Below, one piece after another: positions 3,276 to 62,094 of a stretch of 64,000 nt of DNA. How positions within the stretch are numbered: the stretch's first letter is position 1; every line of letters starts with the position of its first letter. The position numbers were made by a program, and so were the translations under genes. The notes under the pieces were generated by a model, which was given only the letters and a program-made list of their open reading frames with translations, did not search any database and was not told the origin of the DNA. Location of the stretch: the NCBI GenBank assembly GCA_963782535.1, contig CAWAKE010000009.1, positions 246,222-310,221 on the forward strand, given 5' to 3'. The stretch is from an uncultured delta proteobacterium. Its GTDB lineage: Bacteria > Desulfobacterota > Binatia > Binatales > Binataceae.

Positions 3276-3559
3276 CATAAGCGCTGGTTCCCTGTTGATG
3301 CCGCCTCGAGTCGTTCCCGAGGCAAAGCCGTGGCGATTATGGAGCAGCGTCCGTACATGGTCAATTCCAGCCGCATCCGCGCCTGCCCGCGTATCATCGC
3401 GAGCGGCGGGTTGGTCATCTTGAGCGTGTGCATCGTGCGCATCATGATCGACCGTGCCCTCGATCCCACGCTCGATTACATACTTGATCACGTCCGCATC
3501 GGTTGCTCATCAGGCCGAGCGCTGGCCAAATCCGGCGCCTTCATGGTAGTTGTCGCGGC

Positions 3560-10187: not shown

Positions 10188-10272
10188 GCCGGGGTGGTGA
10201 AATGGCAGACACAGAGGACTTAAAATCCTCTGGAGCGTAAGCTCCGTGCGGGTTCGAGTCCCGCCCCCGGCA
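10188..10272 (+). tRNA. tRNA-Leu (anticodon TAA)
   Basis: GCCGGGG acceptor stem pairs with CCCCGGC, discriminator A, D-loop GGTGAAATGGCAGAC. Anticodon stem GAGGA/TCCTC with loop CTTAAAA (anticodon TAA), long variable arm TGGAGCGTAAGCTCCGT. T-arm GCGGGTTCGAGTCCCGC. CCA not encoded. Confidence 0.85.
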
Positions 10273-10455: not shown

Positions 10456-11511
10456 TTGTCGGCCATCTCATGCAGCGATAAAGCTCAAACGATTATGAAG
10501 CAGCAATACTGGGAAGTTGTCCAAGCGATGCCGGCCGCCGAGATGACTGAGCGCATGCGGCGGTTCGAGGACCTCGGAATTTACGGGGTGTGGGCACCGC
10601 AACTGCACTGGCCCCCGTTCGTAACCCTGGCCGCTGCCGCGATGGCGAGCACGCGGCTGAAGCTGGGTACCGGCGTCGCGCTGGCTTTCACGCGCAGTCC
10701 GACGGAAACGGCGTTGAGCGCTCTCGACCTCGATCGGATCAGCGCAGGCAGAGCGGTGCTCGGACTCGGCACGAGCGTGCGCATGTTCAATGAACGGTTT
10801 CACGGCGTCGTCTATGGGAAGCCGGTCGCGCATCTGCGTGAAGTCGTCGAGGCAGTTCGCGCCATCATCGAACGCGGACACCAAGGCGATCTCGGGCAAA
10901 TCGATGGCACCTACCACAAGCTCGACCTGAAGGGCTTCAACACTGGCCGTAAGCCGGTGCGAGCGGCGATTCCAATTTATCTGCCCGCCCTGTTTCAAAA
11001 CACAGTGGTCCTCGCCGCGAAGATCGCAGATGGGTTGCTCGGCCATCCGCTATGGTCTCTCCAATGGATTGTCGAGCAGGCGAAGACGCTTGAGCTAGAA
11101 CTGGCCAGGGCGGGGCGTTCACGTGAGCAGTTCCATGTTAATCTGTGGAACTACGTCGCGGTGGCAAACGAACGCAAACAGGCGATCGACGATATGCGCG
11201 GAACCGTCGCATTTTATTCGAGCATCGCGCAATACGAGAAGTACTTCGCGGCGCACGGCTTTAGCGCGCAGGCTCGTGCGGTGGTTGAAGCGGCTGGGCG
11301 AAACGATTGGGCCGCAATGTTGAAAGCGGTCCCCGACGAAATGGTTACGACCTTCGCGATTGCGGGGACTGCTGACGAAGTGCGCGAGTGCGTTGATCGG
11401 ATGTGGCGGCACGCGGACTCGCTGACGCTGTCGGCACCGCAGAATTTCCTGTCGGCGGCGCGGATTGCCGAGTATCGCGAAGCGATTGTAGCGACGCTTT
11501 ACAGGACGTAG
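10456..11511 (+). CDS. LLM-class F420/flavin-dependent oxidoreductase
   Basis: 351 aa luciferase-like fold (LKLGTGVALAFTRSPTETALSALDLDRISAGRAVLGLGTS). The track ORF begins on TTG. The ATG at MKQQYW (~10495) is an alternative start. Confidence 0.8.
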   Translation: MSAISCSDKAQTIMKQQYWEVVQAMPAAEMTERMRRFEDLGIYGVWAPQLHWPPFVTLAAAAMASTRLKLGTGVALAFTRSPTETALSALDLDRISAGRAVLGLGTSVRMFNERFHGVVYGKPVAHLREVVEAVRAIIERGHQGDLGQIDGTYHKLDLKGFNTGRKPVRAAIPIYLPALFQNTVVLAAKIADGLLGHPLWSLQWIVEQAKTLELELARAGRSREQFHVNLWNYVAVANERKQAIDDMRGTVAFYSSIAQYEKYFAAHGFSAQARAVVEAAGRNDWAAMLKAVPDEMVTTFAIAGTADEVRECVDRMWRHADSLTLSAPQNFLSAARIAEYREAIVATLYRT

Positions 11512-11553
11512 GGGACCGGTTCGAACGATTGCAAAATCACGAGGAGAAAGAAA

Positions 11554-12798
11554 TTGGCAGATCCTAAACTCCGCTTTGGCGCTTTCGTGGCCCCCTTCCA
11601 TCCGGTGGACGAAAATCCGACTTTGGCACTGGAGCGCGATCTCGATCTGATTCAGCTGATGGATCGGCTCGGCTACGACGAAGTCTGGATTGGGGAACAT
11701 CATTCCGGCGGTTACGAGATCATCGCCAGCCCCGAACTGTTTATCGCGACCGCCGCCGAACGCACACGTCATATCCGGCTCGGCACCGGAGTCGTTTCGC
11801 TGCCCTACCACAATCCGTTAATGGTCGCGCAGCGAATCAATCAGCTCGATCACATCACTCGCGGGCGGACGATGTTCGGCGTGGGTCCGGGTGCGCTGCC
11901 GTCGGACGCGATGATGCTGGGGATCGAAGTCGTCAAGCAGCGCGATCGCATGGACGAAGCGCTCGATGTCATCGTCCCACTTTTGCGCGGCGAGACCGTG
12001 ACTGCGCAGACCGATTGGTTCACGCTCAACAACGCGCGTCTGCATCTCAGTCCCTATACACGGCCGCGAATCGAGATGGCGGTCGCGAGCCAGGTTTCAC
12101 CCACCGGCGCACGTGCCGCCGGCAAACATGGCCTCGGGCTGCTCTCGATCGGGGCGACGACTACCGGCGGGTTCAATGCACTCGCTGCCAATTGGGAGAT
12201 TTGCGAGGAGACCGCGCGCGATAACGCAACCAGCGTCGATCGACAATTCTGGCGCGCGGTCGGGCCGGTACATGTCGCCGAGACGCGCGAGAAGGCGCGG
12301 GAGAACGTCCGCTTCGGACTCGAGAAATGGCTATATTATTTTCGTGAAGTCGCGGCGCTGGCGCTGGCTCCGGTAGGCGGCGCCGATCCGATCGACGCCG
12401 TCGTGGACAGCGGACTCGCGGTCATCGGCACTCCCGATGATTGCATCGCGCAAATCGAAAAGCTGCAAAAGCAATCCGGCGGGTTCGGGTGCTTCCTGCA
12501 GCTTGCGCACAACTGGGCGAACTGGGAGGCGACCCAGCATTCCTATGAGATGATCGCCCGTTACGTGATGCCGCATTTTCAGGGTTCGAACACCAATCGC
12601 GATCAATCGATCGAATTTGCCCGGAGCAATTACACCGATCTGGTGGGGCAGGCGAGGGTAGCGGTCGGCACTCGCGTTGCCCAATACGTCGCCGAGAAAG
12701 GCGCACAAAATATCCAGCCCGAAGTTCTGCAGGCATTCGAATCCGAGCTCCGCACAACGCAGGGTCCGGCGAAGAAAAGGGCGGGCGGAAAAGTATGA
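11554..12798 (+). CDS. LLM-class flavin monooxygenase, limonene-1,2-monooxygenase (LimB)-like
   Basis: 414 aa; RFGAFVAPFHPVDENPTLALERDLDLIQLMDRLGYDEVWIGEHHSGGYE is the characteristic N-terminus of the LimB-type LLM subfamily. TTG start per track. Confidence 0.8.
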   Translation: MADPKLRFGAFVAPFHPVDENPTLALERDLDLIQLMDRLGYDEVWIGEHHSGGYEIIASPELFIATAAERTRHIRLGTGVVSLPYHNPLMVAQRINQLDHITRGRTMFGVGPGALPSDAMMLGIEVVKQRDRMDEALDVIVPLLRGETVTAQTDWFTLNNARLHLSPYTRPRIEMAVASQVSPTGARAAGKHGLGLLSIGATTTGGFNALAANWEICEETARDNATSVDRQFWRAVGPVHVAETREKARENVRFGLEKWLYYFREVAALALAPVGGADPIDAVVDSGLAVIGTPDDCIAQIEKLQKQSGGFGCFLQLAHNWANWEATQHSYEMIARYVMPHFQGSNTNRDQSIEFARSNYTDLVGQARVAVGTRVAQYVAEKGAQNIQPEVLQAFESELRTTQGPAKKRAGGKV

Positions 12799-23293: not shown

Positions 23294-24601
23294 ATGGCAG
23301 CGAGCGGAACTGTCGATTACAACGCCCTCGTGCGAGAGGACCGAGTTCATTCCCGCGTCTATACCGACCCGCAGGTTTTCGAAGACGAGATGGAACGGAT
23401 GTTTCATCGCGGATGGGTCTTCGTCGGTCATGCCAGCGAAATACCGGAACCGGGTGACTATCGGCTGGCGTGGGTCGGACGCTATCCGATTATCATGGTG
23501 CGGGGCGCCGACGGCGAGGTGCGGCTATTGTCGAACCGCTGCCGCCATCGCGCGAACACGGTATGTCAGATCGAACGCGGAAACGCGCGATTTTTCCGTT
23601 GTGACTATCACGGATGGATGTACCGGAACGATGGCGGACTGGCGTCGGTGAGTTATCCGGAGGGCTACGATCGGACGTTTCGCAAGGAAGATTACGGACT
23701 GATCCCGTTGCCGCGGGTGGCGAACTATCGGGGATTTATTTTCGGCAGTATCGCGCCGGCGGGGATGAGCCTAAATGACTATCTCGGCAAGGCAACGGAG
23801 CAGATCGATTTATTTGTAGATCTTTCGCCAGTAGGCGAAATCGACGTGCGCGGTGGAATTCATAAGTACAGTTATCACGGCAACTGGAAGTTGCAAATTG
23901 AAAATTCAATGGACGGATACCACCCGAATTTCGTCCACAAGACATTTTTCGGGATGATGGGGCGGCGGGGAATCAAAGCGCCGACGCGGCATTTCGGCGG
24001 TAGTTCGATCGCGGTCGCGCGCGATTTCGGTCACGGGCACGTGATGCTGGACTACCGCGAATGCAATCGCGATGGACAGGTGCTGAACGTAGTGCAGGGC
24101 GGAGAGAAATATCGCGAAGCGATGGATACGCACTACGGTGCGGCGCGTGCGAAGGAGATAATCAACAGCGGCGGCACGCATCTGCTGGTGTTCCCCAACC
24201 TCGTTATGATCGGAGTGCAACTCAGGGTGATTCGGCCGATCGGACCGGAGGAGACCGAAGTGTACCTCTATCCGACGCTATTGAAGGGCGTGGCGCCCGA
24301 GGTGAATCAATGGCGCCTGCGCGGTCATGAGAGCTTCTTCGGACCGGCGGGCTTCGGTGCCCCGGACGATCTCGAGATGTTCGAACGCATGCAGGTCGGC
24401 TTCAGGAACGAACTCGACCCGTGGCTGATACTGTCGCGCGGGACGCATCGGGAGCGCCGTGAGGCTGACGGCACGCGAGTCGGCCATGTGACGGACGAGG
24501 TGACGCAGCGCGGGATTTGGCGGGAATGGAAACGGGTGATGACCGGACGCGAAGACGAGTCGGAGAGCGCAGACGCGTTGCGCATGGCGGCGGCCGATTA
24601 G
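23294..24601 (+). CDS. Rieske aromatic-ring-hydroxylating dioxygenase, alpha subunit
   Basis: Rieske CxH...CxxH (CRHRANTVC ... CDYHGWMY) followed by a catalytic mononuclear-iron domain (DGYHPNFVHK...). 435 aa. Confidence 0.85.
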   Translation: MAASGTVDYNALVREDRVHSRVYTDPQVFEDEMERMFHRGWVFVGHASEIPEPGDYRLAWVGRYPIIMVRGADGEVRLLSNRCRHRANTVCQIERGNARFFRCDYHGWMYRNDGGLASVSYPEGYDRTFRKEDYGLIPLPRVANYRGFIFGSIAPAGMSLNDYLGKATEQIDLFVDLSPVGEIDVRGGIHKYSYHGNWKLQIENSMDGYHPNFVHKTFFGMMGRRGIKAPTRHFGGSSIAVARDFGHGHVMLDYRECNRDGQVLNVVQGGEKYREAMDTHYGAARAKEIINSGGTHLLVFPNLVMIGVQLRVIRPIGPEETEVYLYPTLLKGVAPEVNQWRLRGHESFFGPAGFGAPDDLEMFERMQVGFRNELDPWLILSRGTHRERREADGTRVGHVTDEVTQRGIWREWKRVMTGREDESESADALRMAAAD

Positions 24602-25243: not shown

Positions 25244-26575
25244 CTATTTGGTTCCCAAGGCCGCGAGCGGACCGCGATCCACTACTGGTACACGCTTGGA
25301 TCCCTGCGCCAGTGCGACGCTACCGGGGGTGCGCTGGAACGGATCGCGAAGGTCGATTTCCTGCGCATGAGCCTTGAGGGCAGGGATTACTTCCTCGGCA
25401 AACAGTCGCATGCTGGTGCGCCGGTCGTCGTCGCCGATGGGACCTTGAATACTCAGAATAATAAAAATCCCGGTGCGCAGAACGCTCATGATTGACTTGA
25501 TCTTGGGGATCAAGGTTTTCGGCGTGCCGGCGAGGACCTGCATGTTCTGTTGTCCGCGCATCAACGCGGCGTGCAGTTTGCGCCGGATCTCCGCGTAATC
25601 GAGTGCGCCGTCATCGCTGCCGTGCATCTGCTGGCGCACCTTCTCGCCGCTGATGCCGAGCCACGCGCTGGTCTGCTGTTTCGCCAGTATGCGAATTGCG
25701 GCCTTGGAGTTGTAGCCGGGGGGCATCGTGAACTCCGGCGCCGAGAACGCATTCTGGCCACCGCCGTAAACGAATCCTTCCGCGACCTTTTGCGCCTTTT
25801 CTTCCGTTTCTCCGACGGCGGTCGCAACCATGTAGCCAAAGTTTTCAGGGCCGGCCTGATACCCATGCTTGGCGGCTTCGTCGGCGTAAAAGTCCCACAG
25901 GTCGCAAGTTGGCGCGAGCGGGGTGCCGAGCCCGATGTAGGGGTAGCGATGCGCGGCGCACCACTGCACGGTTTCGGGACTGAGCGTGCCGGGAATCCAC
26001 ATCGGCGGATGCGGCTTCTGATACGGCAGCGCCCACGGATTGACGTGCCGATAATGAAAATGCTTGCCCTCGTAACGCCACGGGCCGGGCCGCGTCCACG
26101 CCTGCACGATGAAGTCGTGGGCCTCGTTGAACATCTCGCGGTTGTAAGCCGGATTCGCGTTGTTGAAGAATTGCTCGGAGCCGGCGCCACGGACCCATCC
26201 GGTGACGAGGCGGCCGCGCGAAATGAGATCGATCTCGGCCAGCTCCTCGGCCATCCGCAACGGATGCTTGATCACCGGGAGCGGATTGCCAATCAGCACG
26301 AGGCGTACGCGCTTGGTCCGATACGCGAGCACCGACGCCTCGACGTTCATCACCGAGCCCATGCAAATGGGGTTGCCGTGATGTTCGTTGAGCGCGACTA
26401 CGTCGAAACCCAGGTCCTCGGCGTAACAGTTTTCGTCGAGGTAGTAATGGTAGTCGTCGGCCGCTTTTTCACGGTCGTATAATTTATTCGATATGCCGAA
26501 AAACGCACCGTTGCGGAGAATCTCTTCTTCGGGGAGCCAGCGATAGGGCCGTTCGGTGAAATAACCTATCTGCAT
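25244..26575 (-). CDS. LLM-class flavin-dependent oxidoreductase (long, LimB-like subgroup)
   Basis: Trimmed to MQIGYFTERPY; NEHHGNPICMGSVMNV, LVLIGNPLPVIKHPLRMAEELAEIDLIS. 444 aa. The track ORF (504 aa) has an implausible Arg/Ser-rich leader. Confidence 0.8.
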   Translation of the reverse strand: MQIGYFTERPYRWLPEEEILRNGAFFGISNKLYDREKAADDYHYYLDENCYAEDLGFDVVALNEHHGNPICMGSVMNVEASVLAYRTKRVRLVLIGNPLPVIKHPLRMAEELAEIDLISRGRLVTGWVRGAGSEQFFNNANPAYNREMFNEAHDFIVQAWTRPGPWRYEGKHFHYRHVNPWALPYQKPHPPMWIPGTLSPETVQWCAAHRYPYIGLGTPLAPTCDLWDFYADEAAKHGYQAGPENFGYMVATAVGETEEKAQKVAEGFVYGGGQNAFSAPEFTMPPGYNSKAAIRILAKQQTSAWLGISGEKVRQQMHGSDDGALDYAEIRRKLHAALMRGQQNMQVLAGTPKTLIPKIKSIMSVLRTGIFIILSIQGPIGDDDRRTSMRLFAEEVIPALKAHAQEIDLRDPFQRTPGSVALAQGSKRVPVVDRGPLAALGTK

Positions 26576-26926
26576 CGCGATGTCCTTTTTTGTCGGTATC
26601 GTTAATAAAATACGTGCGGCGAAGCGAGCAAATCGGCCAGTACCGGAGCCTCGGCGAGATTCGCAAGCCTGCGCCCGTCCGCGCGGCGCCGAGTGGACCC
26701 GCACCATCCGAGGATACCGGACTTCAGGATTACTAGCCCGAATGGAAGTAATGGGCAATAAAGAACGCTCAAGCGGCGGCGGCCGAGGGCGCGAGCGGGC
26801 TCGATCAAGCGCAAAACCGCTAACCCCCGGTCCGCCTCATGCGCTAGAATCAGCACCCCGCGGTTCCATTGAGCCAGTTGCCTTGAGTGTCGGAGCCGCG
26901 ATGCCTTTTCGCGAAAGGAAAACACG

Positions 26927-27892
26927 ATGGCACGATGCGGCATTTCACTTTCACCGATGTCGGGAATTCCCCATCCGGAGTTCATACAACTCGCACGCGA
27001 GGTCGAGGACGCCGGCTTCAGCGGGGTCTTCATTCCGGAGGCCAACAATGACGGGTTGATGTGTTGCTACGCAGTCGCCGGCGCGACCAAGCGGGTCGAG
27101 ATCGGGACCTGGATCGTCAATATTTATTTGCGCGAGCCCACCCTATGCGCGGCCGCAGCCGAAATGGTTCAAGACGCCGCCGGTGGCCGCTTCATCCTGG
27201 GTTTGGGCGTGAGTCATCGTCCGGCCCTGGAAGCGCGCGGAATCCAGATGGGCAACGCCCGCGACCGCCTGCGCCGCGACACACAGATTATTCGCGCGAC
27301 GCTCGGCGGCGAGACCGCAATGTTCGGGATGAAATTTCGCCAGCCAAAAAACCCGATTCCTATCTACTTTGCGGCTCTCGCACTCGAAACTGCCCGCCTC
27401 GCCGGCGAAATTGCGGACGGCCTGATGCTTTACCTGTGCCCGCCGGAGCGGATGCGCAAATCGATCGATGTCGCACACGCAGCGGCCCAGCAGCACGGTC
27501 GCAAGCCGTCGGCGATCGCGGCGACGGTCGGATTGCCGGTTTTTCTGCACAGCGACCTAAAGGTCGCGTACGCTGCGGCTCAACGCGGACTTGCCTTCTA
27601 TGGGGCGCTGCCGTTTTACAATCGCCTGATTGCGCGCAGCGGCTTCGAATCCGCCGCGAATGCGATCATGGCGGCGGCCAAGCGCAACGACGCCAGCGCG
27701 ATGGCGGCTGCGGTGACGGAGCCGATGATCGATTCACTGGCGCTCGTTGGCCCCGAATCTCGATGCTTCGAGCGGCTGGAGCAGTACCGCGAACACGGCG
27801 CCGAGCTTCCAATCATAGTTCCCAACGCGGTTAACGAGGATTACACAACTGCCGTGCGCCGCATTGTGAAGTCATTCGCGAAGCTCAATTAG
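26927..27892 (+). CDS. LLM-class F420-dependent oxidoreductase
   Basis: AAAGGA RBS 7 nt upstream. GFSGVFIPEANND..FILGLGVSHRPALEARG and C-terminal AVNEDY pattern of F420-type LLMs. Confidence 0.8.
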   Translation: MARCGISLSPMSGIPHPEFIQLAREVEDAGFSGVFIPEANNDGLMCCYAVAGATKRVEIGTWIVNIYLREPTLCAAAAEMVQDAAGGRFILGLGVSHRPALEARGIQMGNARDRLRRDTQIIRATLGGETAMFGMKFRQPKNPIPIYFAALALETARLAGEIADGLMLYLCPPERMRKSIDVAHAAAQQHGRKPSAIAATVGLPVFLHSDLKVAYAAAQRGLAFYGALPFYNRLIARSGFESAANAIMAAAKRNDASAMAAAVTEPMIDSLALVGPESRCFERLEQYREHGAELPIIVPNAVNEDYTTAVRRIVKSFAKLN

Positions 27893-29443: not shown

Positions 29444-30520
29444 TCACACCGCAGCGAAATGCGGCATCACCTCGTCCATCAGCATGCGCTGGGAGTTCGC
29501 CCAGCCTTCGGAATTTTCCGATTGATCGAAAGTAAGTACGAGCAAGCAGCCGAAGCCGCCGGTGTCGTGCTGCATGTGTCCCAATTTTTCGGTGACGGTT
29601 TTGGGCGAGCCGACGAGCCAGCAATGGTCAGCCAGGTATTCAATCGTGACATCCGAATCCGGCACTTCCGGATGATGTTTGTACAAGCTGACCATGCCGA
29701 AGGATTTGAACAGCGGCAGCAGATAATCCCGATAGACTCGTCCGAGCATGCCATTGATGGCTTGATCGCGCGCTTCCTTATCGGTTTCTGCTATATACAC
29801 TTCGCGCGCAACCCGCCAGTCTTTGCGAGACGGAGTGCGGCCGGTTTTTTCGGCACCCGCGACTACCGCGTTCCAATGGGTCTTCAGGTAGCTATCGCTG
29901 AGGGCGACACTCATCGGCATGAAGCCGCGCTCGCCGGCGAATTTCAACGTATCCGAGCCCGGCGTCAGACCGGCAATTCCGATTGGCGGATGCGGTTTCT
30001 GGAACGGTCGAATATGAAATTTCAAGGTGTCGAGCATCGTATCGATACGGTTCACCGTCCAGTACTTGCCCACGTATTCGAAGGGCTCGGTGCTTTCCCA
30101 CAGACGCAGGATGATGTCGAGGGCCTCGAGCGTCATGCGTCGGTTTTCGCCGCCGGCGCCATCGACGTTAAACAGCTTCCAGTCGCTGGGCAGGCCGCTG
30201 GTGCCGACGCCAAACATGAAGCGGCCTTGCGCCAGGTGATCCAAATACGCCACGCGATGCGCCAGCTCGGCCGGATGATGATAGGGCAGCAGGTGAGCTC
30301 CGGGGCAGAGCTTGATTTTTTTGGTGCGCAGCAGGCCTTGCGCGATGAGTAAGTCCGGCGCCGGATTCGGCTCCCACGGGGAGGTGAAGTGCTCACCCAT
30401 CCAGGCTTCTTCGAAACCCAGCTTGTCGCACAGTTCGAGATGCTCCAGGTCCCATTGATGACCCGCGAGAAGAGTCCTCTCCGGTGGGTGGGAGGGCATC
30501 ATGAATACACCTGCTTTCAT
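29444..30520 (-). CDS. LLM-class flavin-dependent oxidoreductase (LimB-like)
   Basis: Trimmed to MKAGVFMMPSHPPERTL; EEAWMGEHFTSPWEP, KLCPGAHLLPYHHPAELAHRVAYLDHLAQGRFMFGVG. The 34-aa leader in the track ORF is not protein-like. Confidence 0.8.
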   Translation of the reverse strand: MKAGVFMMPSHPPERTLLAGHQWDLEHLELCDKLGFEEAWMGEHFTSPWEPNPAPDLLIAQGLLRTKKIKLCPGAHLLPYHHPAELAHRVAYLDHLAQGRFMFGVGTSGLPSDWKLFNVDGAGGENRRMTLEALDIILRLWESTEPFEYVGKYWTVNRIDTMLDTLKFHIRPFQKPHPPIGIAGLTPGSDTLKFAGERGFMPMSVALSDSYLKTHWNAVVAGAEKTGRTPSRKDWRVAREVYIAETDKEARDQAINGMLGRVYRDYLLPLFKSFGMVSLYKHHPEVPDSDVTIEYLADHCWLVGSPKTVTEKLGHMQHDTGGFGCLLVLTFDQSENSEGWANSQRMLMDEVMPHFAAV

Positions 30521-30844
30521 ACGATCTCCTTGCCGACAGCTTGCTGTTCCATCGCACATTAAGGGATCGGAGCGCGTGCGGTCAAAGACCCCGGAAGTCG
30601 CGCGCAGAGTCCCGTCAACCATCGAGATCTATCTGTTGGCAGCCGAAAAGTCACCTGTTCTGGCCGCCGAAATCCTGGCCGCGATCAGCCGGGATTTGCC
30701 GCTGAAATTACAGTGGACGTGTTAGGATCGACTTCGAGCGAATCGCCGCGTGAAATTCCGGCAAGATTTGAGTATCGTGCATCCCGCCTCGAGTAGCGTG
30801 CAAACTTTTTCGATGAGCGCCATTATGGGCGCAGGAGAGCTTCG

Positions 30845-31729
30845 ATGGACATAGGCATTCTGGTCGCGACCACGGCTCGAACGGGAGCTATAGATGCGAT
30901 CGCTCGGGCGGTCGAGAACGGCGGATACGAATCGCTCTGGATACCCGAACATCCGGTGATTCCGGTCGGGTTCAAGACCGCAGTTCCCGGCGGTGGCAAG
31001 TTGCCCGAACACTACGGCCGCTGGGTCGATCCGTTCGTCGCGCTTTCAATCGCCGCAGCCGTGACGAAGCGAATCAAGCTTGCGACCGGCATCTGTCTGT
31101 TGCCGGAGCGCGAGCCGCTGATCACGGCCAAGTCGGTAGCGAGCCTCGACCTCTACTCTGGAGGCCGCGTGGTGCTGGGCGTTGGCGCGGGATGGCTGCG
31201 GGAAGAGACCGAGGCGATGGGCGCCCACTTCGGATCGCGCTGGAAGCGGCTGCGCGAGACGGTCGAGGCGATGCGCGTGCTCTGGTCAGAACCGGAGCCG
31301 GCCTACGCGGGCGAGTTGGTTCATTTCCCCGCCGTCAGATGCGAACCGAAGCCCTTGCAGAAGCCCTATCCGCCAATTCTTCTCGGCGGTCACGGACCGA
31401 AGGCCCTCGAGCGGGTGGCGCGGACCTATGATGGGTGGATGCCGCTGGTGCCCAACCCTGAATCGCTCAAGCGCGATGTGACGGCGTTGCGGAAACTCGC
31501 TGCCGACCACGGACGCGACCCCAAGGCGTTGCATATCACCGCGCTGGTTGATCCGGGCGAAAACGGACCGTCGTCAGACGAGCTGCAGAAGTACGCCGAG
31601 GCCGGAGCAAGCCGCGTAGTGCTCTTCTCGCAACGGATGGCGATTGCGATCGCCGACGGTGCAGCACTCGAACTGATCAAACGTTTCGAGCCAGTCGTGG
31701 AACAGGCGCGAAAGATCGGGACAAAGTGA
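30845..31729 (+). CDS. LLM-class F420-dependent oxidoreductase
   Basis: 294 aa; MDIGILVATTAR.., ESLWIPEHPVIP, KLATGICLLPEREPLITAKSVASLDLYSGGRVVLGVGAGW. Confidence 0.8.
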   Translation: MDIGILVATTARTGAIDAIARAVENGGYESLWIPEHPVIPVGFKTAVPGGGKLPEHYGRWVDPFVALSIAAAVTKRIKLATGICLLPEREPLITAKSVASLDLYSGGRVVLGVGAGWLREETEAMGAHFGSRWKRLRETVEAMRVLWSEPEPAYAGELVHFPAVRCEPKPLQKPYPPILLGGHGPKALERVARTYDGWMPLVPNPESLKRDVTALRKLAADHGRDPKALHITALVDPGENGPSSDELQKYAEAGASRVVLFSQRMAIAIADGAALELIKRFEPVVEQARKIGTK

Positions 31730-38073: not shown

Positions 38074-38568
38074 CTATAAGATGATGCTGACCTTGCCGTG
38101 CGGACGCAGCGTCTCTAAATCCAGAACGGCCTTGCGTTCCCGGATCTTCAGCGCGCCCTCGCGCCGCACCAATTTGAATTCGTAATGGCCCACGTATGCG
38201 TCGACCGTTTCGAAGCGCATCCGATAGACGACGAAGTTTGCCGTCACGCAAATATTTTCGCCGTCGGCTCCGAGCACTCGAACATTAGTAATCAGGCGGC
38301 GGGTGCGCGAGTGAGGTGTCTCAGCGTGCGCCGACTTGCCCGTCAATTGCTTCACGCGCGAATGCAGCCGGACCGCATCGTCCGCGATCAGGAACAGTGT
38401 GTCGCTGGGATTGCCGTCAGGGTTGTCCGTCGGCGGCACATAATAGGAAATGTCATCGGTCAACATCCCGAGCCATTCTTCGAGACGCCAGCCGTCCAGC
38501 AGCGCGGCCTCAGCATAAAGTAGCTGCTCAACCTCGGCTGGTGTGGGTAGATCTGCGCTGCTTGTCAT
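38074..38568 (-). CDS. ring-hydroxylating dioxygenase beta subunit
   Basis: LLYAEAALLDGWRLEEWLGMLTDDISYYVP NTF2-like beta-subunit signature. ATG at 38566-38568 overlaps the alpha-subunit stop (ATGA). Confidence 0.8.
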   Translation of the reverse strand: MTSSADLPTPAEVEQLLYAEAALLDGWRLEEWLGMLTDDISYYVPPTDNPDGNPSDTLFLIADDAVRLHSRVKQLTGKSAHAETPHSRTRRLITNVRVLGADGENICVTANFVVYRMRFETVDAYVGHYEFKLVRREGALKIRERKAVLDLETLRPHGKVSIIL

Positions 38569-39851
38569 GCCGCCTTCCGCGCGCGGCGGGCTTGCGGCGC
38601 CGTTATCAGTGTGTGCCATCGGCGCCAGAATGTACGCATCTGCAGCTCGTCGGAGACCCCGGGCTCGTCGCGCTTCATCCCCCGCGAGATGTCAGACCAT
38701 TCGACTTCGGGATTGGCAAATCCGCGCTGGCACGATTCGAGCGCCTCGACGTCGTCAGGCGTTGCAAATCCGCCGGGCCCGAGAAAAGTCAGAAAATTGT
38801 CGAGCCGAAGGGCGAGATCCTCGGGTCTTTCCTTCACTGGAGAAAGCGCCCATGCGTCCACTTCCATGTAATCGGGCGCGATCGGGAAAAACGTGCGGAT
38901 AGTTATCGCCATGATGTCGTTGATGACGAGATTTGGGAAAATCAACAGATTACGACAGGTATGCGCGATCCGCCCCGCGCGCTCGGGGCCGCACCGATCT
39001 TCGAGCGCACGATAGATTTCATCGATGCGTGCCCTGCGCTCTTGGCCGAACAACGGAATCCATTGCGCGATAGGACGACCGAACGGCGCCGAGTACTCGA
39101 TCACGGCATGGCCGTTGCCGAGATCCACGACCTTTTGACGCCACAACATTTCGCCTTTCAGATTGACTCCGCTGTCGGCCAGGAAATTGAAATAGCGCTG
39201 ATGCGTCGGAAGTGCGTGATAGCCGTCGATGCTGTTCTCGGCCAACAGCTTCCAGTTCGCGCGGATGCTGTACGATTGTGTGCCGCCGACAATTTTCATC
39301 CCGGTTTCCGATTGGTCGCAAACCAGATCCAGATACTCTGTAGCGCCGGCAAGATAATCGACCAGCCGCGGCACCGTACGACTGAAGCTCACGAAGATGA
39401 ACCCGCGATAGCTATCGGCCTGTGGCGCAGGAACGAGTCCCAACTCCTCGCGTTTGAATGCCCGCCCGTAGGAATCCTCGCCCGGAATCCCCACCAGATC
39501 GCCGCGTGTATTGAAAGTCCATGCGTGGTACGGGCACTGAAACGTCCGCGCATTACCGCATTTTTCACGGCAGACCATGGCGCCCCGATGGGTGCAGGTG
39601 TTGAGCAACACTCGCACTGTTCCATCGTCGCCGCGCACGATGATCAACGGGCGACCGGCCACCCGCCGCGCCCGATAGTCGCCCGGAAGCGGCACTTCGG
39701 ACTCGTGACCGGCATAAATCCAGCAATTCGCGAATATCCGCTCGCGCTCCATCTCCAGATATTCCGGCCCGACCATGACCCGGCGATTCACGCGAAATAA
39801 TCCTGCTGTCCGATCATCAATGATCAGATTCGATGGCGACGTGCTGTTCAT
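38565..39851 (-). CDS. Rieske aromatic-ring-hydroxylating dioxygenase, alpha subunit
   Basis: Rieske CTHRGAMVC ... CPYHAW plus catalytic domain (DGYHALPTHQ). 428 aa. Confidence 0.85.
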   Translation of the reverse strand: MNSTSPSNLIIDDRTAGLFRVNRRVMVGPEYLEMERERIFANCWIYAGHESEVPLPGDYRARRVAGRPLIIVRGDDGTVRVLLNTCTHRGAMVCREKCGNARTFQCPYHAWTFNTRGDLVGIPGEDSYGRAFKREELGLVPAPQADSYRGFIFVSFSRTVPRLVDYLAGATEYLDLVCDQSETGMKIVGGTQSYSIRANWKLLAENSIDGYHALPTHQRYFNFLADSGVNLKGEMLWRQKVVDLGNGHAVIEYSAPFGRPIAQWIPLFGQERRARIDEIYRALEDRCGPERAGRIAHTCRNLLIFPNLVINDIMAITIRTFFPIAPDYMEVDAWALSPVKERPEDLALRLDNFLTFLGPGGFATPDDVEALESCQRGFANPEVEWSDISRGMKRDEPGVSDELQMRTFWRRWHTLITAPQARRARKAA

Positions 39852-50759: not shown

Positions 50760-51932
50760 GGAGCCTCTGCACAGGTCGTCATACAGCGGCAGTTCGACAT
50801 AGTAATGAGGATTATGAGGAGGAACGGCAGCAGCGCGCTGGGGTGATCGCTGCTGAGAAGCCATCAGGAGCATTGGTTGCCTCTGGTTCTTGTTCACAAC
50901 CCACACCAGGCCCCGGCTGGGAGCAACCGATGCCGGAGTTGGTAGAGATTGGCCAGCGCGAACATGGTTTCGGCCCGAGCCAGATTCTTGGCCAGCCCGC
51001 GATATCTAACCTTGCTGAAGCCCCACAACTGCTTGAGTACGCGGAAGGCATGCTCGCCGCAAGCGCGGGTGCGCGAACGCACCCGGTTGATCATCCGCCA
51101 GCGCTTGCTCAACGGCCGCTGCGCGGTAGGACGGCGATTGATCCGATAATGTATTCCCCGCGATTCAAGGAAGCTGCGGTCATCTTCCTTCCAATACGCC
51201 TGGTCGCCGAACACCTCGCGCTCGTACCCGTGCAAAAGCTCCGGCAGTTGGGTGACATCGGCGACCGCGGCGTCGGTCGCGGTTACGCTGTGCACGATGC
51301 CACGCTGGTCAGCCCCGATGTGCAGTTTCATCCCGAAGTGCCAGTTCTGGCCCTTACGAGTCTGCTTCATCTCGGGGTCGCGCGTCCCACTGGCGTTCTT
51401 GGTGGAACTCGGCGCCGCGATGATGGTCGCGTCCACAATCGTCCCCGAGCGCAGCAACAGGCCGCGGGTCTCGAGCAGACCGCCGATCGCGGCGAAGATT
51501 GCCTTGGTCAAATTGTGCTTCTCGAGCAGATGACGAAAACGCAGAATCGTGGTCTCATCCGGCACCGTGTCCTCGCCCAGCTCCACCTTGGCAAACCGAC
51601 GCATCGACTCACTGTCGTAGATCGCGTCCTCGGCCTGCGGGTCGGAGAGATTGAACCATTGTTGCAGGAAGTAGATGCGCAGCATCTTCTCCAGCCCCAG
51701 TGGCTGGCGCCCGTTGCCGGCTTTGGGGTAATGAGGCTCGATCAGGCGCAAAAGCCGCGCCCACGGAATCACCGCATCCATCTCGCCCAGGAATCGCTCG
51801 CGCCGGGTAACTTTGCCTTTCCCATTCCATGCCATCGATGCGAACGTCCGCTGATTCCCCATCACCGCACCTCCACTCCTGCCGCTCCCACTTATGATTT
51901 ATACCAAACCGAAACACTTGTGCAGAGGTTCC
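50760..51932 (-). mobile_element. IS5-family insertion sequence (IS5 group), intact, with 4-bp TTAG target-site duplication
   Basis: Imperfect terminal inverted repeats GGAGCCTCTGCACAGGTCGT (left, from ~50760) and GGAACCTCTGCACAAGTGTT (right, reverse complement, ending ~51932), 16 of 20 identical. Flanked by TTAG at 50756-50759 and 51933-51936. Encloses one transposase ORF. Confidence 0.8.
50894..51865 (-). CDS. IS5-family DDE transposase
   Basis: 323 aa with the IS5 signature KQTRKGQNWHFGMKLHIGADQRGIVHSVTATDAAVADVTQ...GDQAYW (DDE triad region). Confidence 0.9.
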   Translation of the reverse strand: MMGNQRTFASMAWNGKGKVTRRERFLGEMDAVIPWARLLRLIEPHYPKAGNGRQPLGLEKMLRIYFLQQWFNLSDPQAEDAIYDSESMRRFAKVELGEDTVPDETTILRFRHLLEKHNLTKAIFAAIGGLLETRGLLLRSGTIVDATIIAAPSSTKNASGTRDPEMKQTRKGQNWHFGMKLHIGADQRGIVHSVTATDAAVADVTQLPELLHGYEREVFGDQAYWKEDDRSFLESRGIHYRINRRPTAQRPLSKRWRMINRVRSRTRACGEHAFRVLKQLWGFSKVRYRGLAKNLARAETMFALANLYQLRHRLLPAGAWCGL

Positions 51933-51943
51933 TTAGTGATTGA

Positions 51944-53506
51944 CTAGGAGTCCGTCCGAGAAATTTCGCCGGTTAAGTTGATCTCCGGATTGGAGCGATT
52001 GGCTATTGATGATGCCGGTCGCCCCAGGATCCTGCGAAGCGCCGGCTGGTCGGCTGGCGACTACAAAGAGGTGCGCGTTTTGCTGCGGTATTTCTCGTGA
52101 CCGCCTGGATGACGGTTACGCATTGCAGAGCCGGTGCAACTTCAAAATGTTGTGGGTGAGACAGACCAGCGCCCACTCGCCCCGGACTTTAGCCAAGCCG
52201 CGCAAAAGAAAGCGGCGAAACCCGCGGGCCTCTTTGATCTGGCCGAAGACCGGCTCCACGATCGTTTTCCGTGTCACATAGATTGCCCGCCCCACCTTAG
52301 TCTGAAGCTTGCGTTTCATGCGGTCGACCCGCGTCGCATTGCGCGGTAACGGTCCGCGCGAGCAGGGCTGGCGGTATTCGTCATGCTTCTGCTTGCCAGT
52401 CGCGATATAGCAATCGATCGGGTCTCCAGACTGACCGAGAGCCGCCAGATACGCGAGGTTCTTCTCCGAGCAATAGCCACTGTCGGCCACGAGGCCGGTG
52501 GGTCGCTGTCCGCTCTGTTGCTCGATCACCTGGACCATCGGTTCGATTTGCTGTTTATCGTTGGCTGCCGGCGTCACGCTCTGCCCCACGATTAACTGCA
52601 ACACCGGCTCCACTGCCGCCTGCGCATTGTAGCCTTGCACCAGACCGTCGCTGCCCTGCATCAGGCGCGACTCCGGGTCGGTGAAATTGTATTGATCTTT
52701 GTCCGCGGGCTTCGCCGATTGCACTTCTGCGCGCGGCTTTCCGGCCTTCTCCGCCGACTGCCGCGCCCGCTCTTCCAGCGCCCGTTGCGCCGCGCGAATC
52801 TTCCTTAGCCGGCTCTCGCGCCGCTGCAACTCTGCGGGTAGCTCGTCGCCCCGCCGATCGGCCCCGTAGTGCGCGTCTTCGGCGGCGTCCACCGCCTCGG
52901 CCTGGGCCAGCAGTTCCCGGACCTCTGCGCGCAGTTGCCGTTGCCGCTCCTGCATCCGGCCATAGCTCATCGCTTTGTGCTTGCTGGCGTTGGCTTTCAG
53001 CTTGGTGCCGTCCAACGCCACCCGCCCCAGTTTCAGCGCTCCCGCTTCCAGCGCGATCTTCAGCACCTCTTCAAACAGCCCGGCCAGCGTCGCCAGATGG
53101 AGCTTGCGAAAATCTGCGATGGTACGGAAGTTCGGCGCGTTGCCCGCCGCCAGCACGCGAAACCCCACGTCCTCGATTAAACGCCGCTCGATGCGCCGCG
53201 AGCTAAATACCCCCACGCAATACCCATACACCAGCACCTTGGTCATCATCCGCGGATCGTAGGGCGGCTGCCCGCGTTGCTCGTCCCCATACGCCGCATC
53301 CAGCGCCGATAGGTTCAGATTGTCGACCACATCGCTGACGAAGTAGACCAGATGATTCTCGGGCAACCATTCACGCAGGCTCGGGGGAAGCAGAAACTCT
53401 TGATCCGGATGGTACGGTCGGTAGCTCTTACCCATGCCTAATTATCTACTACTCACACCCCGTTTTCTTCCTCAGTCAAATAACTATTTCTCGGACACGC
53501 TCCTAG
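51944..53506 (-). mobile_element. IS1182-family insertion sequence
   Basis: 21-bp imperfect IRs CTAGGAGTCCGTCCGAGAAAT (51944-51964) and CTAGGAGCGTGTCCGAGAAAT (reverse complement of 53486-53506), 18 of 21 identical. Encloses one 439-aa transposase gene. Begins 7 bp from the IS5 right-hand TSD. Confidence 0.7.
52116..53435 (-). CDS. IS1182-family transposase
   Basis: MGKSYRPYHPDQEFLLPPSLREWLPENHLVYFVSD N-terminus characteristic of IS1182-family transposases. Coiled-coil middle and C-terminal DDE domain (DSGYCSEKNL). Confidence 0.85.
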   Translation of the reverse strand: MGKSYRPYHPDQEFLLPPSLREWLPENHLVYFVSDVVDNLNLSALDAAYGDEQRGQPPYDPRMMTKVLVYGYCVGVFSSRRIERRLIEDVGFRVLAAGNAPNFRTIADFRKLHLATLAGLFEEVLKIALEAGALKLGRVALDGTKLKANASKHKAMSYGRMQERQRQLRAEVRELLAQAEAVDAAEDAHYGADRRGDELPAELQRRESRLRKIRAAQRALEERARQSAEKAGKPRAEVQSAKPADKDQYNFTDPESRLMQGSDGLVQGYNAQAAVEPVLQLIVGQSVTPAANDKQQIEPMVQVIEQQSGQRPTGLVADSGYCSEKNLAYLAALGQSGDPIDCYIATGKQKHDEYRQPCSRGPLPRNATRVDRMKRKLQTKVGRAIYVTRKTIVEPVFGQIKEARGFRRFLLRGLAKVRGEWALVCLTHNILKLHRLCNA

Positions 53507-53594: not shown

Positions 53595-54713
53595 TCAGGC
53601 GGCCACATGAGCCGTCATCGTGAGATCCGCGGGCTCCTGCAAGGGCTCGGTCTTCCAGCTCTTGACTTCGGGCATCACGTGTTTGACGAAGCATTTCAAG
53701 TTTCGCTCGGCTTCGTCGTATGGCATGCCGGCGTAGCTGAAGTTGAGCATGAAGCCGTTCGCGTCGATGGTCTCGCGGATCGTAGAGAGCTTCTCGATCA
53801 CCTGGCCCGGGGTCCCCCACGGCATCAATTTCGCAAAGTCGGCGGCCGCACCATCGATTCCGTGCTTAGCGATAAACTTGCCGACCTGACTATAGAATTC
53901 ATAACCCTTCTGACTGCCGAATTTGGACGAGGTCATTTCATAATGTTTAATCACCGTCCGGTATTGTGCGGATAGCCACTTCATCGCCTGCTCTTCGGCG
54001 CGGTCCTTGTTCTCATCGACAAACACGAAGCCTCCGCTCAGCGGTTTCGGCGCCGGTGTGGCTCCGTTAACTTCGCGCCACACGCGATGGTAGTTTTCGA
54101 AATCGACCTTTACGGCCTCCCACGGCTTCTGGGGAATGACCAGCAGACCGACGCCAAGCTTGGCCATGATCGGCATCGATTCTGGCGATACCGCGGCGGC
54201 ATAGGTGCGGCCTTTGAAGGACTTAAAAGGAAAGGGCCGAATTTCGCGGCGCGGCTGCTTGGTGTAGGCGCCGCCTTCCATGTAACCGGTTTCGAGGGCT
54301 CGCGTGATCAGCTGTGCATATTCGACGAAGAGATTCCGCCCTTCGTTTTGATCGAGGCGAAAGCCATCGTACTCGATTGGCGCAAGTCCGCGGCCGATCC
54401 CGAAGAGAAAGCGGCCGTCTGATACATGGTCGAGCATTGAGGCCTGCTCGGCGACACGAATCGGGTCATGCCAGGGGAGGACCACGACCATCGAGCCGAG
54501 CTTCACATGCTTGGTTCGCCCTGCCATGTAAGTCAGAAATTGAACGGGATCGGGACACATTGTGTAATCATCAAAATGATGTTCAATCGACCAGACGGAA
54601 TCGAAACCCAAGGGCTCGGCCATCTCGGCGAGTCGGATTTCATTGCGCCAGACCTCGCGGTCGGAGAGTTGATTATTGGGGTTTTGAAAGACTAATCCAT
54701 AACCGACGTGCAT
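53595..54713 (-). CDS. LLM-class flavin-dependent oxidoreductase
   Basis: Trimmed to MHVGYGLVFQNP; FDSVWSIEHHFDDYTMCPDPVQFL, KLGSMVVVLPWHDPIRVAEQASMLDHVSDGRFLFGIGRG. Confidence 0.8.
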   Translation of the reverse strand: MHVGYGLVFQNPNNQLSDREVWRNEIRLAEMAEPLGFDSVWSIEHHFDDYTMCPDPVQFLTYMAGRTKHVKLGSMVVVLPWHDPIRVAEQASMLDHVSDGRFLFGIGRGLAPIEYDGFRLDQNEGRNLFVEYAQLITRALETGYMEGGAYTKQPRREIRPFPFKSFKGRTYAAAVSPESMPIMAKLGVGLLVIPQKPWEAVKVDFENYHRVWREVNGATPAPKPLSGGFVFVDENKDRAEEQAMKWLSAQYRTVIKHYEMTSSKFGSQKGYEFYSQVGKFIAKHGIDGAAADFAKLMPWGTPGQVIEKLSTIRETIDANGFMLNFSYAGMPYDEAERNLKCFVKHVMPEVKSWKTEPLQEPADLTMTAHVAA

Positions 54714-54798
54714 AGTAGCCTCCTCGGGGGCAGAATTTTCCACGAAAGTTGACCGCACTCGCCACCGACAAATCTCTCAGGTTTTTATCGTCGCCATA

Positions 54799-59227: not shown

Positions 59228-60370
59228 TTACCACAGCTTTTGCGAGGCGAGTTTTGCGCCCTCTGACATCGATTTCAATTTCGCCCAAGTGATTGTCGGG
59301 TCAACCGGAGTATAGTTCGCAACCGTTGCAAACCCACAGTCGCTGCCAACGATCACGTTTTCGCGGCCCACCACGCCGGCGAGATTACAAATACGCTGGG
59401 CGATGAGTTCCGGATGCTCGATGTAGTTATTGGTGGAGTCGATTACCCCCGGTATCAAGATTTTTCCGGCGGGCAGTTTGACGTCTCTGAACACCGCCCA
59501 TTCGTGTTCGTGGCGGGGGTTGGCGCCCTCGTACGAGATGCCCGCCGCATGAGCTTTGAACACGATATCGATGATGTCGCGGATGGGAATGTCGCGGTGG
59601 TGCGGCCCTTCGTAGTTTCCCCAGCACAGATGGATGCGGACGCGGTCTTCTGGAATATCGGCGAGCGCATGATTGAGCGCTTCGACGTGCATTTCGAGAT
59701 GCTTGCGAAACTCGGCTACAGTCGCGTCGGGAAATTGAATGTGACGCCCCATCGCGAAGTCCGGACAATCGACCTGGAGGATAAATCCGGCCTGATGGAT
59801 AGCATTATATTCGGCCTTCATCGCGTCGGCGAGCGCAGCCAGATAGGCTTCGTGAGTTTTGTAGTAGTGATTGCCTAAAAAGATCGAAATCACCCCCGGC
59901 GACGCCGCGCTGAGGAAGGCTTCGGCGGGGTTGAAATCGGCGACAGCGGCTTTGAGATTGGCGATATCCCGGCTGACGGCGCCGTGTTCCCGATAGGTAA
60001 TCGCCTCAGTGCACGCGGGTCGTTTGAGGGTCTCGAGCACGCCTTGACGGGCGAAGCGCTCGCCAAATTCCGGGTAATCTGCGATGTCGCCGATGGCCAT
60101 CACGTCCGCTTCGCCCTGAAACCCGGTCAGGCGATCCTTGACGTAGGTGGCATAGGAGGGCTTGCTGGCCTCGCCGTCATTGACGATATCGACCCCAGCG
60201 TCGATTTGCTGACGCACGACCTCGGTGACGGCCGAACGAACGCGTGCGTCGAGCCGCGCGACGTCGGCTTGCTGACAACTCTCGGCGGCTGCGAAAAGCG
60301 GAAGCAAATCGTTCGGTCGCGGCAGGCTTCCGGTATGGGTAGTGAGGATGCGTTCGGTGCTGCGTTTCAT
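59228..60370 (-). CDS. cobalamin-independent methionine-synthase (MetE C-terminal domain)-like protein
   Basis: TTHTGSLPRP opening and Zn-ligand-like His/Cys/Glu pattern (..IHLCWGNYEG.., ..GSDCGF..) of the UroD/MetE TIM-barrel family. 380 aa, AAAGGAG RBS. Confidence 0.7.
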   Translation of the reverse strand: MKRSTERILTTHTGSLPRPNDLLPLFAAAESCQQADVARLDARVRSAVTEVVRQQIDAGVDIVNDGEASKPSYATYVKDRLTGFQGEADVMAIGDIADYPEFGERFARQGVLETLKRPACTEAITYREHGAVSRDIANLKAAVADFNPAEAFLSAASPGVISIFLGNHYYKTHEAYLAALADAMKAEYNAIHQAGFILQVDCPDFAMGRHIQFPDATVAEFRKHLEMHVEALNHALADIPEDRVRIHLCWGNYEGPHHRDIPIRDIIDIVFKAHAAGISYEGANPRHEHEWAVFRDVKLPAGKILIPGVIDSTNNYIEHPELIAQRICNLAGVVGRENVIVGSDCGFATVANYTPVDPTITWAKLKSMSEGAKLASQKLW

Positions 60371-60528
60371 GGCGATCTCCTTTCATGCCGACTCTGGCGC
60401 GGTGGCAGGCGAGGGCTTAGAAAAGTGGGTTTGTTTTGTGAGAAAATAATTTTGCACTTCGCCGACGATCCGGCAACCAGCCGATAACCTGTATCGGCGA
60501 CCGCGGCATCCCGGCAAGCTATCGCATC

Positions 60529-60831
60529 ATGGACAGCTTCGGCTCGCACTCCTTCCAGTGGGTAAACGCCGCGGGCGAAGCGGTCCCGGTGAAATACCAT
60601 TTCAAGTTCGAACAGGGGATCGCAACTCCGCCCGCCGGGGAGGCCGCGCGACTGGCCGGCGCGCTTTATCGATTGATGAACGAGGCCGAAAAACAGCGGC
60701 TGACCGCAAATACTGAGGACCGTCTTGGGCGGGTGAGCAAGGACGAGATAGTTGAGCGGCCGATCATGAATTTCCGCAAGGCCGATCCCGATTATGGTGA
60801 AAGTGTGGGGACGGCGGTGGCGGCGAAGTGA
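60529..60831 (+). pseudogene. catalase remnant (5' half missing, internal in-frame deletion)
   Basis: FGSHSFQWVNAAGEAVPVKYHFKFEQGI matches the catalase core segment (FGSHTFK.VN..G.....KFH.K..QG). ..ALYRLMNEAEKQRLTANT...IMNFRKADPDYGESV matches the catalase C-terminal helical region. These normally lie ~200 aa apart but are contiguous here. Nothing catalase-like lies upstream of 60529. Confidence 0.65.
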
Positions 60832-61044
60832 GCCGCGTGTTAGCCGACGCGCGTCATGCGGCAGACGACCGGCGATCGCACGGCACGATTCGGGTCACCC
60901 CGGCGACATCGCTTGACGCGGACGCCACGCGCGGGCCAAGTTAAAATGACTTGGTGACTAATGGGTCAAGGTCCCACTAGTCGTTTTGAGCGATGAGGTA
61001 AGCGTCGAACTCGCGAGCGCAAAGCTGCGCTGGAATGCTAGTCT

Positions 61045-62094
61045 ATGAAAGTCACTTTCGCGGTTAGTATCGACCCGGGCGGGCCACTTATCAGTCGCGC
61101 TGATGTTGACCGCTACTTCGACCTGGTGAAGATGGCTGAAGACTACGGCGCAGTAGCGATCGGCACGTACGATTCGGCCTTTATCGGCGGCGACGCTTTC
61201 GTCAGGGCGACCCTGATCGCGCAAGCTTCGTCACGCGCTCGAGTGGGCTTGCGGCCGACCAATCCAATCACGCGCGAGCCTCAAGTGATGGCGTCGTTTC
61301 TGGCGTCGATCGACAGCCTCACGGACGGACGCGCGTTCATGGATATAGCGAGCGGCGACAGCGCCGTGCTCAATATTGGCTATAAAATCGCGTCGCGTGC
61401 ACGTATCGAAGAGTACATAACCTGCGTACGCGATTTGCTGGCGAAAGGAGAAGCCACTTATCGCAACCGTCCGCAGCGGGTTCGCTGGAGCGGCACCGCG
61501 GTGCGCAATCGAGTGCCGATTTCGATCTGCGCCGAAGGACCCAAAATGCTGCATCTGGCCGGGCGAGTCGGCGACGGCGTGATAGCCGGGACCGGGCTTT
61601 CCCCGGAGGTGATAGCGGATACGATTGCGAGAGTCGAGGCTGGCGCGCGTGCGGCCGAACGCGACCCGGCGGAGGTCGATATCTGGTTCACGACGCGAAC
61701 CTCGCTGCATGAGGATCGTGATCGCGCGATCGAGAATGTAAAGGCGTCGGTGTCGTCGATACTCAATCACTCGATGCGCTACAGCCTGGAGGGCAAGTGC
61801 GTACCGCCCGATTTGAGTTCCAAAATACAGGCCTATGTCGATGGTTATGTACTTTACGATCACGTATTGCAGGCGGGGCAGAATCCGCGGCGGATGGATG
61901 AACTCGGACTGACCGATTATGCGATTCGGCGTTTTGCGCTGGCCGGGAACGCGAGCGACTGGATATCGCGTATCGAAGAAGTTGCACAAGCGGGCGCTTT
62001 TCAGTTGTGGGTAAGCCCGGGAAGGGGCCGGCTCGAACGCCAGTTGCATTACATGCGGATTCTGGGCGGTGAGGTAATGGCGCATTTTGTCTGA
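61045..62094 (+). CDS. LLM-class F420-dependent oxidoreductase
   Basis: 349 aa; MKVTFAVSIDPGGP.., VAIGTYDSAFIGGDAF, ICAEGPKMLHLAGRVGDGVI typical of F420-type (MER-like) luciferase-like reductases. Confidence 0.75.
   Translation: MKVTFAVSIDPGGPLISRADVDRYFDLVKMAEDYGAVAIGTYDSAFIGGDAFVRATLIAQASSRARVGLRPTNPITREPQVMASFLASIDSLTDGRAFMDIASGDSAVLNIGYKIASRARIEEYITCVRDLLAKGEATYRNRPQRVRWSGTAVRNRVPISICAEGPKMLHLAGRVGDGVIAGTGLSPEVIADTIARVEAGARAAERDPAEVDIWFTTRTSLHEDRDRAIENVKASVSSILNHSMRYSLEGKCVPPDLSSKIQAYVDGYVLYDHVLQAGQNPRRMDELGLTDYAIRRFALAGNASDWISRIEEVAQAGAFQLWVSPGRGRLERQLHYMRILGGEVMAHFV

Follow-up and report, generated by a model that had tools for sequence, protein, structure and literature searches.

The open reading frame of 100 codons at positions 60529-60831 on the plus strand of the 64-kb stretch of DNA analyzed here (the window) is, with high probability, a non-functional pseudogene of a small-subunit haem catalase gene. 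An earlier sequence-only reading had called it a decayed monofunctional catalase, and truncation of the gene, loss of its catalytic residues, a neutral-like pattern of substitution and start and stop codons that are not conserved all bear that description out.

Two parts of a catalase are joined in one frame

The translated product of the frame, MDSFGSHSFQWVNAAGEAVPVKYHFKFEQGIATPPAGEAARLAGALYRLMNEAEKQRLTANTEDRLGRVSKDEIVERPIMNFRKADPDYGESVGTAVAAK, matches two Pfam families, and both matches exceed the curated cut-offs. PF00199 (Catalase) covers residues 1-45 at profile positions 185-229 of 383 and scores 33.4 bits where the cut-off is 25 (E=3.6e-08), and PF06628 (Catalase-rel) covers residues 43-96 at profile positions 11-64 of 65 and scores 58.1 bits where the cut-off is 30.1 (E=1e-15). 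The catalase core thus runs directly into the C-terminal helical region within a single frame, as had been proposed, with both families significant. The parts of the remnant are as follows.

60451..60528, plus strand: 5' remnant beyond the open reading frame, catalase residues ~167-192, ending in ...GDRGIPASYRI; no in-frame start codon
60529..60660, plus strand: N-terminal part of the frame, catalase core piece MDSFGSHSFQWVNAAGEAVPVKYHFKFEQGIATPPAGEAARLAG, residues ~193-236 of intact catalases; tblastn identity 57-63%
60652..60663, plus strand: deletion junction CTG GCC GGC GCG (L-A-G-A), its Ala-Gly common to both breakpoints in intact homologues
60661..60831, plus strand: C-terminal part of the frame, catalase helical domain ALYRLMNEAEKQRL...NFRKADPDYGESVGTAVAAK with a TGA stop; residues ~428-485

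The core piece had been thought to stop at KYHFK; it extends 22 residues beyond that point, to ...EAARLAG. Two blocks were also recovered from the top PDB match, the E. faecalis catalase 1si8 (chain residues 191-234 and 419-474), while residues 430-482 of Helicobacter pylori KatA (1qwl) match the C-terminal part of the frame. The leading PDB matches, 1si8, 1qwl and 4e37, have E values of 6e-17 to 3e-11, compared with 0.005-0.03 for the large-subunit HPII-type chains. By sequence comparison the catalase homology of the frame is far above chance, and the PDB ranking by itself suggests an affiliation with clade 3, the small-subunit clade to which we take the E. faecalis, H. pylori and P. aeruginosa KatA enzymes to belong.

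About a quarter of the gene is left

We searched the whole window by tblastn with three intact catalases of 485-488 aa taken from GTDB genome loci. The queries matched the remnant with E values of 1e-19 to 3e-21 in two blocks that share the same frame (+1), one at 60451-60660 corresponding to residues 167-236 (57-63% identity) and one at 60655-60807 corresponding to residues 426-476 (59-63% identity). No other piece of a monofunctional catalase was found in the 64-kb window, where the remaining tblastn matches have E>0.2. The earlier statement that nothing catalase-like lies upstream therefore holds for any further piece of the gene, but not for the DNA immediately before the start codon. There the sequence ...GDRGIPASYRI directly precedes the M of MDSFGSH with which the frame begins, and catalase homology starts ~45-78 nt 5' of the ATG. 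At the DNA level this upstream alignment is firm from ~60482-60494 and tenuous over 60450-60490, where it requires several small indels.

What survives had been described as the 3' half of the gene. Our alignments correct this to a central piece and the C-terminal tail, ~25% of the gene (~120 of 485 residues), with ~166 codons lost from the start of the gene and 191 from its interior. In haem catalases a distal His and Asn, a proximal Tyr and an Arg have established roles in the enzyme. In the numbering of an intact homologue (L003) these residues fall at ~56 (distal His), ~130 (distal Asn), ~335 (Arg) and ~339 (proximal Tyr), all of them in the missing parts. Homology starts only at residue ~167, beyond the motifs RVVHA and GNNTP that contain the distal His and Asn, and RLFAYxD, the motif of the proximal Tyr and Arg, falls within the 191 codons missing between residues 236 and 426; all three motifs are absent. 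Without the haem-pocket His and Asn or the proximal Tyr and Arg, the remnant is unable to work as a catalase; judged by these losses, its product can neither bind haem in the manner of a catalase nor turn over peroxide. The C-terminal motif NFRKADPDYG is still present in the mutated remnant.

The internal deletion and its junction

An internal deletion of roughly 200 aa had been proposed, and aligning the fragment against 78 intact loci maps its endpoints and gives 191 codons. The missing stretch measures 573 nt, in frame, in 56 of the 78 loci (range 567-582 nt). The two tblastn blocks overlap on an Ala-Gly pair at 60655-60660 (GCC GGC). Among the 40 intact homologues listed of the 78, the N-side breakpoint reads ...(L/I/A/T)AG|E/A/K..., with GG in one, and the C-side breakpoint reads ...QAG|(N/A/D)LYRLM. 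At the nucleotide level the N-side site is CTGGCCGGCGAG in L013, L052 and L058 and the C-side site is CAGGCCGG... in L034, L041, L048 and L020, and the window reads CTGGCCGGCGCG at the junction. Because Ala-Gly is present at both breakpoints in intact homologues, a microhomology-mediated deletion between short direct repeats of ~6-8 nt is plausible, and a direct repeat such as GGCCGGCG would be a candidate flank of the 573-nt deletion. A look for short direct repeats at the junction had been suggested; the shared Ala-Gly of intact homologues is consistent with such repeats, and proof would need the ancestral sequence.

The same junction occurs in a different organism

A protein search with the window protein (P0001) returned a protein of 111 aa (P0002) that is about 76-77% identical and carries both Pfam domains. 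It is encoded on a related metagenome contig of 3.5 kb (L001, ENA ERZ27256814) from a different organism. Gene order on L001 matches that of the window, with a MetE-like gene on the minus strand, the remnant and a luciferase-like monooxygenase (LLM) gene, and the junction is identical (...EAARLAGALYRLMNEAEKQRL...). A further copy, identical to that of the window, is present in a Logan assembly of run ERR11571143 (L002), so that three separate assemblies show the remnant structure, namely L001, L002 and the 528-kb contig of the source genome (NCBI/ENA). Because L001 carries the same join, both deletions are, on this comparison, older than the split between the window organism and the L001 organism. 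MetE-like or LLM neighbors were found at none of the 80 other catalase loci listed from GTDB genomes, among which the source genome is not included. A scan of JGI metagenomes gave no further copy of the remnant, its single locus (L085) being an intact catalase.

The remnant diverges in a neutral-like manner

We compared the remnant and its two neighbors between the window and L001, the one orthologue pair on which the selection tests rest. The differences at codon positions are given in the order first/second/third.

Remnant: 87.5% nucleotide and 76% amino acid identity; dN 0.12, dS 0.19, omega 0.65; codon positions 14/12/14
MetE-like gene: 95.1% nucleotide identity; dN 0.020, dS 0.161, omega 0.126; codon positions 12/4/40
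LLM gene: 95.4% nucleotide identity; dN 0.015, dS 0.153, omega 0.101; codon positions 8/2/38

The omega of the remnant lies below 1 but is indistinguishable from it (p=0.32), its differences are spread uniformly over the codon positions (p=0.90), and its ratio of nonsynonymous to synonymous changes is unlike that of both flanking genes (p=4e-4 and 3.5e-5). Its divergence of 12.5% equals or exceeds that of the flanking intergenic DNA (8-10%; 89.9% and 91.6% identical), and no stretch of the locus is less conserved than the body of the open reading frame. The upstream remnant at 60451-60507 is 90.9% identical to L001.

Neither end of the frame is conserved. The ATG of the window is ATT in L001 and the GTG start of L001 is ATC in the window, while L001 has CGA in place of the TGA stop of the window and its frame continues for 4 more codons. 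No Shine-Dalgarno-like motif precedes either start, a point of little weight, as such a motif is seen at only 19 of 56 long window ORFs. At columns conserved in at least 95% of 76 intact catalases (a reference set that is mostly Streptomyces, making for a somewhat generous conservation threshold), the window is mutated at 16 of 61 and L001 at 11 of the 49 it covers, compared with 0.39 such changes on average and a maximum of 7 in the intact catalases. Two of these changes are found in the window only and five in L001 only. Because some near-invariant columns are mutated in one lineage only, decay is proceeding independently in the two lineages.

The frame has nevertheless stayed open. In the 321 nt common to both ORFs there are no frameshifts, premature stops or indels; indels are confined to the 5' remnant outside the frame, where window and L001 differ by a 2-nt indel at ~60499. 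From the 3 indel events in 353 nt of flanking non-coding DNA, the Poisson probability of none in the shared 321 nt is 0.065, and the frame is still free of stop codons in 32% of simulations that introduce 40 random substitutions. The joint neutral chance of an open and indel-free frame is thus ~0.02 (0.065 x 0.32) before correction for ascertainment. We do not take this value as a sign of selection because L001 was found via a protein database, in which only open frames are represented, and because only 3 indel events underlie it. We propose instead that the 100-codon frame is still open because little time has elapsed.

A retained small protein is unlikely

The open frame could alternatively encode a haem-less protein of ~100 aa, a hairpin followed by a four-helix domain, that has been retained for a new role such as binding or regulation, with the join itself under selection. 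We consider this unlikely. An intact family of small proteins in relatives had been named as the finding that would overturn the reading as a relic; a syntenic ORF does exist in L001, but it evolves at a neutral rate. The indel-free frame in two lineages 12.5% apart, with its low joint neutral probability before ascertainment, is a point in favor of a retained protein, and it is set against an omega indistinguishable from 1, uniform codon-position differences, start and stop codons that are not conserved and the independent mutation in each lineage of residues invariant in the parent fold. An AlphaFold model of the product gives a beta-hairpin and four helices at a mean pLDDT of 67.7, with 48-65 in the hairpin and 70-82 in most of the helical half. 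The predicted confidence of the helical half would suit a retained protein; the hairpin and helices are plausible as modeled, and the model is neutral as to a stable folded product.

A family of such proteins would be expected to show in database searches. A phmmer search against 1.84 billion cluster representatives returned 750 matches, and among the best 150 of these only P0001, whose 50% cluster includes P0002, has E<=1e-30, the next best being 3.3e-18. From ~15 billion proteins, P0001 and P0002 are the only two with this architecture among the matches listed, which speaks against a retained small protein. We examined two other short matches, P0004 and P0005, as candidate members of a small-protein family and rejected both, neither being orthologous to the remnant. 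P0004 (93 aa) is the C-terminal piece of a frame-broken catalase at L083:2658-4279 (GCA_000721965.1, KL585614.1), in which residues 1-394 lie in one frame and residues 393-485 in another, ~150 nt apart, with a FUR-family gene adjoining. Either pseudogene formation or faulty assembly accounts for this split catalase. As the tail of a broken gene, P0004 counts against a retained small protein.

P0005 (161 aa; L084:2382-2867, Logan SRR22870116 contig 10855) starts at catalase residue ~115, and an internal deletion within it, also in frame, has brought KYHY directly next to TQAGDLYRLM. Its neighbors are an amino-acid permease gene on one side and a FUR-family gene on the other. It is an independent catalase relic in another lineage, not orthologous to the window locus. 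Its C-side breakpoint is at most 2-3 residues from that of the window, and such an independent fusion could be read in favor of a selected join. The likeness is partly selection bias, however, because the search favors short proteins that keep both segments, and P0005 was picked by a search rewarding this very architecture. A domesticated haem-less protein, open in two lineages and echoed by the P0005 fusion, is accordingly given little credence here; if it were true, the Catalase-rel domain would be a module able to function alone. P0004 and P0005 are evidence that such remnants recur, not evidence of a family.

Database 'catalases' of 175-447 aa (P0006, P0010, P0021 and P0041) have internal gaps at other positions, and partly deleted catalase ORFs would therefore seem not to be rare in public protein sets.

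Neighboring genes and the surrounding window

Upstream of the remnant the window contains the following gene.

59228-60370, minus strand: MetE-like gene, 380 aa, PF01717 E=1e-12, match limited to the cobalamin-independent methionine synthase catalytic domain

This gene is probably a paralogue within the MetE family rather than MetE itself. Purifying selection acts on it (omega 0.13 against L001), and its ribosome-binding site, AAGGAGA, is clear. A MetE-like gene had been described as ending on the opposite strand next to the remnant; the strand is right, but the two are divergent and it is the start codon of the MetE-like gene, not its end, that faces the remnant, which begins ~80 bp away. On the other side, the spacer at 60829-61044 between the remnant and the LLM gene is 91.6% identical to L001, compared with 87.5% for the ORF of the remnant. 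This spacer may hold candidate regulatory sequence for the downstream LLM gene.

We have also considered that the dead gene is kept as regulatory DNA, a promoter or operator for the MetE-like gene or for the downstream LLM gene. Its closeness to the MetE-like start codon would fit such a role, as would the somewhat better conservation of 60451-60507 and of the downstream spacer in comparison with the ORF body. These differences in conservation rest on few sites, however, the ORF body is the least conserved part of the locus, a scan of 60200-61200 gave no sigma-70-like promoter or terminator, and no Rfam family matches the remnant region, and we regard retention as regulatory DNA as very unlikely. 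Least credible of all is a collapsed or chimeric assembly of a catalase gene that is truly intact: although the assembly is of the uncultured type, metagenome assemblies do contain chimeras and the broken catalase of L083 is a database example of such a defect, an artefact is ruled out by the agreement of three separate assemblies, one (L002) identical to the source genome and one (L001) 87.5% identical with the same junction and flanks.

A Pfam survey of 50 window ORFs of at least 130 aa places the catalase pseudogene among many oxygen-using enzymes. Nine luciferase-like monooxygenase (PF00296) genes are present in the 64 kb. The main features of this survey and of the Rfam search, in which a tRNA is the sole match in the window, are the following.

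3503-4402, 10456-12798, 25244-27892, 29444-31729, 53595-54758 and 61045-62094: luciferase-like monooxygenase (PF00296) stretches
23294-24601 and 38565-39851: Rieske ring-hydroxylating dioxygenase alpha subunits (Pfam); one beta subunit is also in the window
50894-51865 and 52116-53435, minus strand: two DDE transposase genes next to each other (DUF772 + DDE_Tnp_1); the remnant lies 7-9 kb away and does not adjoin them
10188-10272, plus strand: single tRNA gene (Rfam)

Pfam matches further identify an FMO-like protein, a LigB-like protein and three glyoxalase/dioxygenase-superfamily proteins, together with acyl-CoA dehydrogenases and enoyl-CoA hydratases. The set of oxygen-using enzymes is unusually dense, and the description of the genome as crowded with oxygenases is accurate for the 64-kb window. 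No peroxidase, Mn-catalase or second catalase was found among the 50 surveyed ORFs. The DDE transposases are a sign of local genome plasticity.

A proposed course of decay

We propose that an ancestral catalase gene of ~485 codons was struck by two deletions, and we infer both their order and that the remnant is not expressed. One deletion would have removed the promoter and approximately the first 166 codons, bringing the rest of the gene to within ~80 bp of the divergent MetE-like gene. The other would have taken out 573 nt (191 codons) in frame, probably by slippage or illegitimate recombination between the Ala-Gly-encoding repeats. Since the window and L001 organisms separated, substitutions have built up in the remnant at about the synonymous rate of the neighboring genes.

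The remnant shows that an ancestor of this lineage had a monofunctional catalase at the locus and lost it before the two sampled relatives diverged. Because the window is rich in O2-using enzymes, what removes peroxide now is a reasonable question. The remnant also bears on annotation. Gene callers report it as a protein with two catalase domains, and an automated survey could therefore wrongly score the organism as catalase-positive.

Comparison with known systems

Catalase-type pseudogenes are well known in bacteria; our literature search on catalase pseudogenes returned no match. The remnant is an ordinary pseudogene and one more case of gene decay. Its pieces are 57-63% identical to small-subunit haem catalases (1si8, 1qwl KatA and the Streptomyces-type L003-L082) and occur in the same order and frame, the intact comparison catalases coming from Streptomyces, Acidimicrobiia, Methylomirabilis and other MAGs. 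In contrast to these enzymes it is without most of the beta-barrel, the wrapping loop and the haem-pocket residues, and whereas intact catalases are under constraint the remnant evolves without it. With catalase homology and the Catalase-rel domain present and the catalytic residues absent, it is, as far as its sequence can tell, not a functional member of the haem catalases. P0005 and P0004 are similar truncated catalase ORFs that differ from it in breakpoints, neighbors and lineage.

A parallel is found in Mycobacterium leprae, where the KatG and AhpD genes are pseudogenes (PMC8252540). As with the remnant, M. leprae katG is the gene of a peroxide-removing enzyme that has been lost by deletion and decay with recognizable fragments left. 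KatG is, however, a catalase-peroxidase of unrelated fold in a massively reducing genome, while the remnant derives from a monofunctional catalase and, unlike M. leprae katG, lies in a window that is otherwise rich in intact genes and carries an internal deletion that happens to be in frame.
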